Assembly (NCBI GenBank): GCA_009778115.1
Contig: WRKL01000001.1
Span: 1 to 64,000, forward strand
Direction of reading: 5' to 3'
DNA: 64,000 nucleotides
Origin: Oscillospiraceae bacterium
GTDB taxonomy: Bacteria; Bacillota; Clostridia; Oscillospirales; Ruminococcaceae
Both the position numbers and the translations under genes were made by a program. This document shows, one piece after another, positions 14,170-44,586 of the stretch (the stretch's first letter is position 1; every line of letters begins with the position of its first letter). The notes below the pieces were generated by a model. That model ran no database searches, was not told where the DNA came from, and worked only from the letters and a program-made list of their open reading frames with translations.

Positions 14170-14433
14170 TTATTCGAGAACGGATTTTATAGCTTTTGCT
14201 AATTGATCAGGGCAGGACGTACCCCTCTTCCCGCAAACAATACCCTCCAGCTTTCGTGTCGCTTCGTTTGCTTGCATTCCTTCTACCAAACTGGAAATAC
14301 CGCGCGTATTTCCGCTGCAGCCTCCGGCAATATTTACCTTGCTTACAATCGGCGTATTACCCGAACCGCCGGTCAGCTCAAAGGTAATTTCGGATGCGCA
14401 AACACCCTTGGGTTTAAAAATATATGACGGCAT
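14170..14433 (-). CDS. TSCPD-domain small protein (TIGR03905-like)
   Basis: It contains the GTSCPDQLAKAI motif. The RBS AAGGAGG lies 7 nt upstream of the ATG at 14433. The track ORF begins further upstream. Confidence 0.6.
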   Translation of the reverse strand: MPSYIFKPKGVCASEITFELTGGSGNTPIVSKVNIAGGCSGNTRGISSLVEGMQANEATRKLEGIVCGKRGTSCPDQLAKAIKSVLE

Positions 14434-20248: not shown

Positions 20249-21025
20249 TCAAGAAAAAAATGCCGAAATATTAGCGCAATATTGCCGCTCATACTCCACT
20301 CCAACCAAATATAATCCGTGCGCCGGCGCAGTTTTGCCCGCTTTAGAACGGTCCCCGGCGCTGATAATTTCGCTAATGTCTTCCCGTGTTACGTTTTGCC
20401 GCCTTAAATCGACCAAGGTTCCCGTTATGATCCTTACCATATTATAAAGGAACCCGTCACCCGTAATTCTCAATGTCAAAATCCCGTCATTTTTTTCGGC
20501 CTCAAAGGTAAATATCGTGCGTACATGACTATCCTGTTTCTTTGCTCTTGCCGCGCAAAACGATGAAAAGTCGTGGGTCCCGATAAATCCTTCCGCCGTT
20601 TCTTTCAGCTTCGAAAGATTGATGTTATGAGGATAATGCCACATCAGCTTTTCATAAAACGGGTTCCGGTATTTGCTGTTCCATATTTTATATTCATATG
20701 TTTTGTTTACCGCGCTGTACCTGGGGTGAAACGAAGGCGAAACTTCGCAGCAATCCAAAACCGCCATATCCCTCGGCAGGACTGTGTTCAGAGCCGGTGC
20801 AAATTTGTCCGCAGCTAATGCGCACTGTGTCCTTACAGTAAAATAATATGCGGCAGCGTGTACACCCGAATCCAGCCGCGAACATCCTGTAACGCCGTCC
20901 CGGTTTCCGGTTATTCTGTGTACCCCATCCTGCACGACCTGCTGCACCGCCAGAGCATTTTCCTGTACCTGCCATCCGTGGTATTTCGTTCCTGCATATT
21001 GCAATTTAAACAATAGATTTCTCAT
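20249..21025 (-). CDS. truA: tRNA pseudouridine(38-40) synthase TruA
   Basis: The RLDSGVHA catalytic-Asp motif is present. The YHGWQ block is present. The length is 258 aa. Confidence 0.85.
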   Translation of the reverse strand: MRNLLFKLQYAGTKYHGWQVQENALAVQQVVQDGVHRITGNRDGVTGCSRLDSGVHAAAYYFTVRTQCALAADKFAPALNTVLPRDMAVLDCCEVSPSFHPRYSAVNKTYEYKIWNSKYRNPFYEKLMWHYPHNINLSKLKETAEGFIGTHDFSSFCAARAKKQDSHVRTIFTFEAEKNDGILTLRITGDGFLYNMVRIITGTLVDLRRQNVTREDISEIISAGDRSKAGKTAPAHGLYLVGVEYERQYCANISAFFS

Positions 21026-21032
21026 AATACCA

Positions 21033-21195
21033 ATAGGTCTCCTTGAAAATCACTTCGCAACGTATGAACGGAAGATTTCCCGTCACACGATGTTAATTTA
21101 TCCTCAAATATCCATGATATTCTCGTCAAAATTGCCTTGTTTGACGAAAAATCATCTGTGTTCATACATCACGTTTTAATTCCCGAGGAGGTCTA
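21033..21195. mobile_element. Copy C of the MITE-like repeat (reverse orientation). It overlaps the trmFO stop codon.
   Basis: It is the reverse complement of copy A, with TIRs TAGGTCTCCTTG...CGAGGAGGTCTA. The trmFO ORF ends at 21176, inside the element. Confidence 0.8.
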
Positions 21196-22516
21196 ATATT
21201 AATTCCTCTAATTTTTGTATAGCTCTTTGCGCAAAAGCTTCATATCGTTTTTCTTTACCGCGCATAAGGCTGCGCACAGGTTCATCCATCGGCGGAAGCA
21301 ACCCCATGTTTGCGCCCATAGGTTGGAAGTTATTATTTCCCCGGCATAAATAACCGGCAAGAGCGCCCGTCATAGATTCACGCGGCGGAACAAAGGGACT
21401 CAAGCCCGAAACCAGCCTAACAGCGTTGATACCGGCGAGAATACCGGTAGCCGCAGACTCGGTATATCCCTCAACTCCGGTTATCTGTCCGGCGAACATA
21501 ATATTCGGATGATCCTTTAATCTCAAATGTGCATCCAGCAGTTTCGGCGAATTTATAAACGTGTTCCGATGCATAACACCATAGCGGACATATTCCGCAT
21601 TTTTCAACGCGGGGATAAGCGAAAACACCCGTTTTTGTTCCGCCCATTTCAGGTTTGTCTGAAAGCCTACAAGATTGTACAAATCCCCCTCTGTGTTCTC
21701 TTTGCGAAGCTGCACTACAGCCCACGGACGGCGCTCTGTACGCGGATCGGACAAACCTACCGGACGCATAGGCCCGAAACGCAGCGCATCCCGTCCCCGT
21801 TTTGCCAATACCTCGACGGGCATACAACCCTCATAAAATTTTCTCTTTTCAAAATCCTGTAAAACCGCTGTTTCGGCATTTCTCAAAGCATCAATAAATA
21901 ATTCGTACTCATCCTTGTCAAGAGGGCAATTAATATAATCCGCATCACCGCGCCCATATCTTGCGGCAAAAAAAGCATTTTCAAAATCAATGCTGCCGAA
22001 TGTAACTATAGGGGAAACCGCGTCATAAAAACTAAGCGAGCTTTCCCCGCATATTTTCTTTATGTAATCAGCCAGCGCGTCCGCACACAGAGGGCCCGCC
22101 GCAACAATGATATATTCTTCGCTTAACCGGTCAAGGGAGCATATTTCCTTTCCGGTAATTACTTCGATGTTCGGATGTGAATTTATCGCAGCGGTAACCG
22201 AATCCGAAAATTTTCCGCGATCGACCGCCAATGCTCCGCCGGCAGGAACGGCACATGATTCGGCACATTTTAAAATAAGTGATCCTAAAATTCGCATTTC
22301 TTGTTTAAGCAGCCCCGCCGCGCTTTGCAATCGCTTTGCTTTCAGCGAATTCGAACATACCAGTTCGGCGAAACCGCGGTATTTATGCGCGGGGGAAAAC
22401 CTGTGCGGCTTCATTTCATACAGTCTCACACAAATTCCGGATTCAGCTGCTTTCCACGCCGCCTCACATCCCGCCAGCCCCGCTCCGATGACCGCAATTT
22501 TAATATCTTTTTTCAT
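21176..22516 (-). CDS. trmFO: Methylenetetrahydrofolate--tRNA-(uracil54-C5)-methyltransferase TrmFO (Gid)
   Basis: It has the FAD-binding VIGAGLAGCEAAW. It is a 446-aa Gid-family protein. Its last 8 codons and stop lie inside repeat copy C. Confidence 0.9.
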   Translation of the reverse strand: MKKDIKIAVIGAGLAGCEAAWKAAESGICVRLYEMKPHRFSPAHKYRGFAELVCSNSLKAKRLQSAAGLLKQEMRILGSLILKCAESCAVPAGGALAVDRGKFSDSVTAAINSHPNIEVITGKEICSLDRLSEEYIIVAAGPLCADALADYIKKICGESSLSFYDAVSPIVTFGSIDFENAFFAARYGRGDADYINCPLDKDEYELFIDALRNAETAVLQDFEKRKFYEGCMPVEVLAKRGRDALRFGPMRPVGLSDPRTERRPWAVVQLRKENTEGDLYNLVGFQTNLKWAEQKRVFSLIPALKNAEYVRYGVMHRNTFINSPKLLDAHLRLKDHPNIMFAGQITGVEGYTESAATGILAGINAVRLVSGLSPFVPPRESMTGALAGYLCRGNNNFQPMGANMGLLPPMDEPVRSLMRGKEKRYEAFAQRAIQKLEELILDLLGN

Positions 22517-22712: not shown

Positions 22713-22899
22713 CCTTAGTCCTCGCTTATTGCAACCTATTGTAACCTAATATTAGTCCCAATTGAGAAATTCAAATGAAAAATCTGCGCAATAGTCACAT
22801 ATCGGAGTTTGCACTTGATTTTTCGAGCATTTCTTAGGATTGGAATTAGTATAAAAATATTTTAATCGGAAGTATTCAAATTTCGGAAGGAGTTTTTAA

Positions 22900-29691: not shown

Positions 29692-29720
29692 GTTACACTC
29701 CGCAAATCATTTTTTTATAA

Positions 29721-29863
29721 TAGACCTCCTCGAAAACTACTTCGCGACGTACACACGGTGTTAATTTATCCTCAAATTTCCATAATATTCTCGTCAAAAT
29801 TGCCTTGTTTGACGAAAAATCATCTGTGTTCATGCATCACGTTTTAATTTCCGAGGAGGTCTA
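29721..29863. mobile_element. Copy D of the MITE-like repeat (reverse orientation)
   Basis: It has the same TIRs and core. It lies between lysS and the hypothetical gene. The right end carries an extra partial duplication (GAGGTCTA repeated 16 nt further on). Confidence 0.75.
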
Positions 29864-29896
29864 ATGAAGCTTTTATGAGGTCTATTGATAATTATA

Positions 29897-44106: not shown

Positions 44107-44156
44107 AAAAATCAAGTGAAAGTTTTGATACATGGCTTTTACGCAATTTTTTATCT
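44107..44156 (+). repeat. Direct repeat copy 1 (~50 bp), upstream of a small ORF
   Basis: AAAAATCAAGTGAAAGTTTTGATACATGGCTTTTACGCAATTTTTTAT is ~85% identical to 44537-44586. Confidence 0.6.
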
Positions 44157-44536: not shown

Positions 44537-44586
44537 AAAAATCAAGTGAAAACTTTGATATATGGATTTTACGCCGATTTTTTATA
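44537..44586 (+). repeat. Direct repeat copy 2 (~50 bp). It is bracketed by a 13-bp inverted repeat: ACCAATATCCAAT at ~44504 and ATTGGATATTGGT at ~44597.
   Basis: The sequence is AAAAATCAAGTGAAAACTTTGATATATGGATTTTACGCCGATTTTTTAT. The flanking inverted repeat was seen directly. Confidence 0.6.

Follow-up and report, generated by a model that had tools for sequence, protein, structure and literature searches.

Dispersed repeats that encode the 3′ ends and stop codons of genes are already documented, and an event of this type is of an ordinary kind. In Streptococcus pneumoniae ATCC 700669, for example, 36 coding sequences (CDSs), among them the housekeeping genes folE, mtlD, dnaJ and glgP, take their 3′-terminal codons and stop from a BOX repeat, with no clear truncation of the proteins (Croucher et al. 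2011, PMC3049150), and the extension of genes by repeats, at either the 3′ or the 5′ end, has been reviewed (Delihas 2011, PMC3184786). Here we describe a comparable case in a 64,000-nucleotide (nt) stretch of the genome of an Oscillospiraceae bacterium (GenBank assembly GCA_009778115.1, contig WRKL01000001.1, positions 1 to 64,000; hereafter the window), where trmFO, which encodes a folate/FAD-dependent tRNA U54 methyltransferase, ends inside one copy (copy C) of a family of miniature inverted-repeat transposable elements (MITEs). Comparison of the copies indicates that the MITE very probably inserted at an ATT in the last codons of trmFO and now supplies its final codons and stop, without having destroyed the gene. 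This assessment applies to the explanation as a whole, including the co-transcription, Shine-Dalgarno sequestration and translation of the downstream gene truA that we infer below.

Like BOX, the element is a small interspersed hairpin-forming repeat, probably co-transcribed with its neighbours, that supplies gene 3′ ends and stops. Compared by description only, the two differ in that BOX is modular (boxA/B/C), whereas the present element has an 18-bp terminal inverted repeat and a 3-bp target duplication; we know of no target duplication and no classic terminal inverted repeats in BOX. Correia elements (CREE/NEMIS) of Neisseria are, as is generally known, MITEs of about 100-155 bp with terminal inverted repeats that lie beside genes or between them, are co-transcribed and form long hairpins in mRNA, features that the present element resembles; RNase III processing has been reported for Correia elements. 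They duplicate TA, however, whereas our element duplicates 3 bp (AAT, ATT or TTT), carries a Shine-Dalgarno-like GGAGG in both ends rather than a promoter, and resides in a Gram-positive host of the Clostridia. Functional signals (an IHF site and promoters) have been reported in Correia elements (Delihas 2011, PMC3184786). MITEAba12 of Acinetobacter (113 bp) has stops in all frames and fuses to neighbouring CDSs, adding up to 19 residues or contributing the first four residues of a gene (PMC6382973); it differs in having outward promoters instead of a ribosome-binding site, and most of the fusions reported for it disrupt the gene or involve 5′ ends. Neisseria REP2 and Borrelia IR-A/IR-B are dispersed repeats immediately upstream of genes that carry a ribosome-binding site (Delihas 2011, PMC3184786). 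In contrast to the present element, which supplies only a Shine-Dalgarno-like motif, they lack terminal inverted repeats and are not regarded as transposons, and they also carry a promoter and ATG. The ERIC/IRU repeats of enterobacteria and the pneumococcal RUP are non-autonomous palindromes in transcribed intergenic regions that form orientation-dependent RNA hairpins; to our knowledge these are other sequence families in other hosts, and no terminal Shine-Dalgarno motif has been described for them. In the full-text literature searched, a MITE, a terminal inverted repeat and a Shine-Dalgarno sequence were found together only in Croucher et al. (2011, PMC3049150), who describe no such motif within terminal repeats, a negative that carries little weight.

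The junction between trmFO and truA comprises the following features (window coordinates).

20249..21025, reverse strand: truA, encoding tRNA pseudouridine synthase A (258 amino acids; PF01416, E = 2.1e-36), its ATG 9 nt past the element end
21032..21034: downstream copy of the target duplication (direct repeat)
21035..21194, reverse strand: MITE copy C, 160 nt, in sense orientation to trmFO and truA (delimited by alignment of copies and by the duplications)
21039..21044, reverse strand: Shine-Dalgarno-like AAGGAG in the 3′ terminal repeat, 13 nt before the truA ATG (read from the sequence; putative function)
21176..21194, reverse strand: element-derived end of trmFO, consisting of the third base of a Leu codon, GAC CTC CTC GGG AAT (DLLGN) and TAA (from alignment of copies and the target duplications)
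21195..21197: upstream copy of the target duplication (direct repeat), AAT on the forward strand and ATT in sense, within the trmFO codons ATA-TTA
21176..22516, reverse strand: trmFO CDS, 446 amino acids, ending ...EELILDLLGN* (from the open reading frame (ORF) list, PF01134 and similarity to TrmFO)

The trmFO ORF ends in the residues ...QKLEELILDLLGN*, and its stop TAA, the reverse complement of positions 21176-21178, lies inside copy C, as a sequence-only reading of this DNA had proposed. The encoded protein is 100% identical to a protein annotated as TrmFO in an NCBI metagenome-assembled genome (MAG), carries PF01134 (GIDA-family fold), and shares 61-67% identity with 26 other TrmFO proteins in alignments that cover 96-98% of its length. 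A single copy of the dispersed repeat occupies the 150-nt gap between trmFO and truA, and the ORF overlaps the element proper by 19 nt (22 nt including the target duplication). The earlier figure of 24 nt was too high, as the element proper ends at 21194. Similarly, the residues ILDLLGN had been assigned to the element in full; DLLGN, the stop and the third base of the Leu codon do come from it, whereas the host encodes the Ile codon and contributes TT, the start of the Leu codon that the element's A completes. A second assembly from the same organism (L001) is 100% identical across 18.3 kb spanning the junction, which is hence not an obvious assembly artefact.

A tail of ...ILDLLGN could in principle be native to TrmFO, the element end having been derived from it or having converged on it, with no insertion involved. 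This is extremely improbable. The 19 nt that close trmFO are also the first 19 nt of at least 12 other copies, which lie in unrelated contexts, and copy C is flanked by a perfect ATT/ATT direct repeat, as expected of a 3-bp duplication. Moreover, a NuoE-like 2Fe-2S ferredoxin gene (PF01257, E = 1.7e-49), followed by a NuoF-like gene on overlapping contigs of a termite-gut metagenome (L007 55-570, reverse strand, joined to L006 12-2004, forward strand), runs into another copy of the element in the same frame and ends ...TEKTIKILDLLGN. The tail of its product, ...TIKILDLLGN, has the same ILDLLGN* as TrmFO in an unrelated gene. Excision of that copy restores ...KILEELKEDA*, seven native residues (EELKEDA) having been replaced, and the reconstructed tail aligns with solved NuoE/HydC-type structures to residues 170-171, across the excised site. 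On these alignments, the NuoE-like gene appears to be a second and cleaner case of a MITE-supplied gene end. What a native tail has in its favour is that there is no empty site for direct comparison.

Comparison with orthologues had been named beforehand as the test that could overturn the insertion reading. None of the best 120 TrmFO hits ends in ILDLLGN, and two unrelated proteins share this tail only where the repeat sits, so the outcome is the opposite of a refuting one. The comparison was made over some distance: 5.8 billion protein clusters, fragments included, were searched with the full-length protein and with its C-terminal 109 amino acids, and apart from the same MAG they contained no relative above 67% identity. 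Conserved TrmFO columns are kept through Y425/R431, the tail past about residue 431 is not conserved, and orthologue tails vary in sequence and, by more than 15 residues, in length.

Excising copy C together with one ATT yields ...GAG GAA TTA ATA TTG GTA TTA TGA (...EELILVL*), a protein of 443 amino acids, and places the trmFO TGA over the truA ATG in an ATGA overlap (reconstructed junction GAGGAATTAATATTGGTATTATGAGAAAT). A model with a TA duplication gives the same trmFO frame and the same overlap. The native trmFO sequence that was replaced amounts to two codons (Val-Leu) and the stop, and the tail has gained three residues. Since no more than this was replaced, the effect on the TrmFO protein is trivial. 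The duplication, the shared 19 nt, the NuoE-like tail and the reconstruction thus uphold the proposal that trmFO lost its native 3′ end to a repeat insertion and survived as a gene. The description of trmFO as essential was not justified either, given that trmFO is dispensable in Bacillus subtilis.

Besides copy C, the window contains the following copies, for a total of four full copies and one truncated copy in 64 kb.

3438..3597, forward strand: MITE copy A, 160 nt, duplication AAT, upstream of a chorismate mutase gene
7636..7684, forward strand: truncated copy, 5′ 49 nt only, 86% identity
29722..29862, reverse strand: MITE copy D, 141 nt (19-nt internal deletion), duplication ATT, between lysS and a 270-amino-acid ORF
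60294..60453, reverse strand: MITE copy E, 160 nt, duplication ATT, nearest to the family consensus, upstream of rplU

Copy C aligns with 3432-3598 (inverted), 29700-29866 and 60291-60457 at 94-96% identity (85% for the deleted copy D), and its match to copy E has a blastn E value of 1.6e-73. The motif GGAGGTCTAAT occurs seven times in the window at one mismatch or fewer, against 0.63 expected. Copy C has the 5′ terminal repeat AGACCTCCTCGGG and a degenerate 3′ terminal repeat (CAAGGAGACCT vs the consensus CGAGGAGGTCT), and three of its seven private substitutions fall within the last 10 nt of the latter. An orthologous counterpart of copy E was found at locus L011.

Taking about 17 copies together, the element runs from AGACCTCCTCG to CGAGGAGGTCT. 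Its length is exactly 160 nt in six copies, and deletion derivatives of 141, 121, 77 and 71 nt retain both ends. The consensus terminal inverted repeats, AGACCTCCTCGGAAATTA... and ...GGTTTTCGAGGAGGTCT, pair over 18 bp counting G-U (the outer 11 being perfect Watson-Crick pairs) and extend imperfectly to about 36 bp. A perfect 3-bp target duplication flanks 10 of the 12 two-ended copies (AAT/ATT in nine, TTT in one), and in the other two the flanking triplets agree at 2 of 3 positions. A TA target duplication, as in the boundary model of Correia/IS630-type elements, was considered and dropped after comparison of these 12 copies: all copies end TAG...CTA, yet the flanks of the copy at L093 are TTT/TTT, which is impossible under a TA duplication, and a 3-bp AWT explains the flanks. 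Mean identity among copies is 96%. Given a size below about 600 bp, the terminal inverted repeats, the fixed-length target duplication, the dispersed copies and the deletion derivatives, the element is a genuine MITE, and the family is a previously undescribed non-autonomous DNA transposon. There is no transposase gene in the 160 nt, and the element ends hold stops in five of six frames. The longest internal ORFs (about 46-50 codons) have no Shine-Dalgarno sequence, and a protein search with two of them returned only three matches, all of them element-derived hypothetical ORFs, one of which could not be placed on a contig. No second class of terminal-repeat occurrences was found in the 64-kb window.

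Outside the window, at least 14 further copies were located on contigs of two termite-gut metagenomes. An exact 20-nt core of the element had no match in 185,579 species-representative genomes and matched nine Joint Genome Institute (JGI) metagenome contigs, mostly from Ga0099364, which represents the P3 gut compartment of the termite Termes hospes (Hervé et al. 2020, PMC7024585). Two more copies, in JGI 3300002469, were located via element-derived ORFs, and the plasmid and phage collections searched gave no match to the element. In these searches, the family was found only in what appears to be a narrow lineage of termite-gut Oscillospiraceae. The best genomic relatives by TrmFO are Oscillospiraceae, Ruminococcaceae and Acutalibacteraceae MAGs at no more than 62% identity, and the host lineage is therefore one of poorly sampled Oscillospirales.

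In the sense RNA, copy C is predicted to fold into one long hairpin of -59.7 kcal/mol (about -57 to -60; z = -6.5). The trmFO stop codon is located within the 5′ arm of this hairpin, and not directly before the hairpin as had been suggested. Such a stable structure overlapping the stop might be taken for the transcription terminator of trmFO, with truA expressed from a promoter of its own. We consider this very improbable. No T-run follows the stem (the sequence past it is ATTGGTATTATG), no terminator-like site was found on either strand in 21030-21200, and the minus strand has no promoter-like site between the hairpin and truA, the ATG of which lies only 9 nt past the element. These negatives make read-through more likely than termination. 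Furthermore, other copies sit inside obvious operons (nuoE-nuoF, prfA-sua5 and polysaccharide-synthesis genes).

Both element ends read outward as CGAGGAGGTCT, which contains the Shine-Dalgarno-like GGAGG. At the truA end, pairing probabilities predict that AAGGAG is fully paired with CCUCC of the 5′ arm, and that forcing a ribosome-sized footprint at the trmFO stop to stay unpaired frees it in part. Among the 160-nt copies, copy C has the least stable fold, and its terminal stem is weakened by the three substitutions in the 3′ terminal repeat (CGAGGAGGTCT to CAAGGAGACCT). A reading frame that enters the element in sense orientation meets a stop after 0, 6 or 11 codons, depending on the frame; in antisense orientation, one frame stays open for 48 codons.

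Under the insertion reading, these features may be arranged into a sequence of events. Before the insertion, the reconstructed trmFO end (...EELILVL-TGA) would have overlapped the truA ATG in a translationally coupled junction. The MITE would then have inserted at the ATT in the last trmFO codons and split the junction by 163 bp. Because the sense 5′ end stops every frame within 11 codons, the trmFO frame closes after five element residues (DLLGN) at the element TAA, with the enzyme core untouched. The other terminal repeat places AAGGAG 13 nt from the truA ATG, approximately the distance that the displaced host GAGGAA would have had (14 nt). The element would be co-transcribed within the trmFO-truA mRNA, where its long hairpin may sequester the new Shine-Dalgarno sequence, and ribosomes terminating in the 5′ arm, helped by the three stem-weakening substitutions, might let truA be translated. 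The hairpin, stop and AAGGAG features are consistent with a translational coupling of trmFO and truA that has been re-established in this way.

Several points weigh against this account. The searches gave no allele of the trmFO-truA junction that lacks the element, the nearest TrmFO being 67% identical, and truA lies within 2.5 kb of trmFO in 0 of 80 trmFO loci of GTDB species representatives. For these two reasons, the ancestral ATGA overlap would have to be read from the reconstruction itself, in which the right frame is expected by chance about one time in three. At 13 nt, AAGGAG lies rather far from the ATG for a Shine-Dalgarno sequence. Co-transcription, Shine-Dalgarno sequestration and translational coupling are all computational predictions. 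Finally, neither the window nor the fetched loci yielded an autonomous parent that shares the terminal repeats. As to gene order, the adjacency of trmFO and truA is unusual among the 80 best genomic relatives, and the closest TrmFO protein match (P0002) is encoded in a dprA-topA-trmFO context.

For annotation, the last five residues of TrmFO and of the NuoE-like protein are transposon-derived and should not be read as conserved protein features. The locus also illustrates how a housekeeping operon junction with an overlapping stop and start can tolerate a 160-bp insertion; the element brings stops and a ribosome-binding motif with it. As the evidence stands, the locus adds one more example to those described for BOX, Correia and other repeats. 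If the coupling mechanism were true, the family would offer a compact, naturally occurring case of a mobile element suited to gene junctions and a possible source of portable stop/Shine-Dalgarno cassettes.

The more interesting aspect, a tentative one, is that the MITE family seems built to sit in operon junctions. A gene start is found at most 10 nt from an element end in 5 of 13 copies (copy C, L007a, L007c, L008a and L009a), where GGAGG is the only candidate ribosome-binding site. The genes in question are truA, a polysaccharide pyruvyl transferase gene (GGAGGTCTaATG), an FrhB-like gene (GGAGGTCTaGTG), sua5/tsaC after prfA, and a 154-amino-acid ORF (GGAGGTCTatttATG); Pfam confirmed four of them, and the 154-amino-acid ORF (L008a) had no Pfam match. 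This exceeds an expectation of 7.3% (P ~0.002), a rough null built on permissive AAT/ATT sites in the window and ORF-based gene calls. Approximately 9 of 11 asymmetric copies are in sense orientation to neighbouring genes, and the sense RNA is predicted to fold 12-20 kcal/mol more stably than the antisense in all eight copies tested.

The orientation bias, the folding asymmetry and the enrichment at start codons would also fit a repeat that is mainly a selected RNA-level operon module (an mRNA stabiliser, processing site or coupling hairpin) rather than a selfish transposon, so that its presence between trmFO and truA would reflect function and not accident. As the principal account this is improbable, although it and the transposon reading are not mutually exclusive. 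The target duplications, terminal inverted repeats and deletion derivatives all point to transposition, and the folding asymmetry is a property of one near-identical sequence (96% mean identity) that provides no independent covariation. Purifying selection can account for the orientation bias, given the frame that an antisense copy leaves open for 48 codons. No known RNA family was recognized either: Rfam 15 gave no gathering-score match in the window except one tRNA, and nothing at E <= 1 on 20950-21280.

A proposal that retains transposition is that the MITE family is adapted to tight operon gene junctions, breaking and rebuilding translational coupling wherever it lands. Its outward Shine-Dalgarno ends would serve the downstream gene, the incoming frame would be closed within 11 codons, and the hairpin would mask the downstream Shine-Dalgarno sequence until a terminating ribosome opened the 5′ arm. 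Such adaptation, if true, would explain both the sense-orientation bias and the start-codon enrichment; we regard it as speculative and rather unlikely.

Some further copies are located at gene junctions. In the polysaccharide cluster of L007, deletion derivatives at 2486-2606 (121 nt) and 3704-3774 (71 nt) lie exactly in successive junctions (glycosyltransferase / pyruvyl transferase / FrhB-like), with the downstream start codon 1 nt past each element end. A 5′-truncated copy at L009 1203-1332 fills the gap from the prfA (RF1) stop to the sua5/tsaC start, and its Shine-Dalgarno-like motif is mutated to GAGCAGG. Next to copy A, a small stand-alone chorismate mutase gene (3612-3887, forward strand; CM_2, E = 1.2e-21) starts 14-23 nt past the element end, with AAGGAAG as a ribosome-binding site of its own.

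Copy E is adjoined by fragments of a DDE transposase (60552-60949, forward strand; one piece matches DDE_Tnp_1 with E = 0.0023, below the Pfam cut-off), and this remnant is not bounded by the MITE terminal repeats. A second donation of a stop was considered at the same copy, where a 217-amino-acid ORF (60452-61105, reverse strand) ends at an element TAG; it was rejected, as the ORF has no Pfam match, is antisense to the DDE remnant and is probably spurious. Look-alikes of the terminal repeat (AATAGACCTCAT and ATTAGACCTTCTCGG) occur 12-22 nt upstream of the 5′ ends of two copies, at 29875-29887 (copy D) and at L008 ~14335-14350 (the copy at the L008 end). These could be footprints of earlier copies, or could reflect a transposase that targets end-like sequences.

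A second, unrelated repeat of about 46-49 nt (AAAAATCAAGTGAAA.TTTGATA.ATGG.TTTTACGC..ATTTTT) is also present in the window, in three intergenic copies with 74-85% identity, one of which is inverted and one of which is located in the divergent trmFO-secD region:

22775-22823: copy of the unrelated repeat
44107-44152: copy of the unrelated repeat
44537-44585: copy of the unrelated repeat

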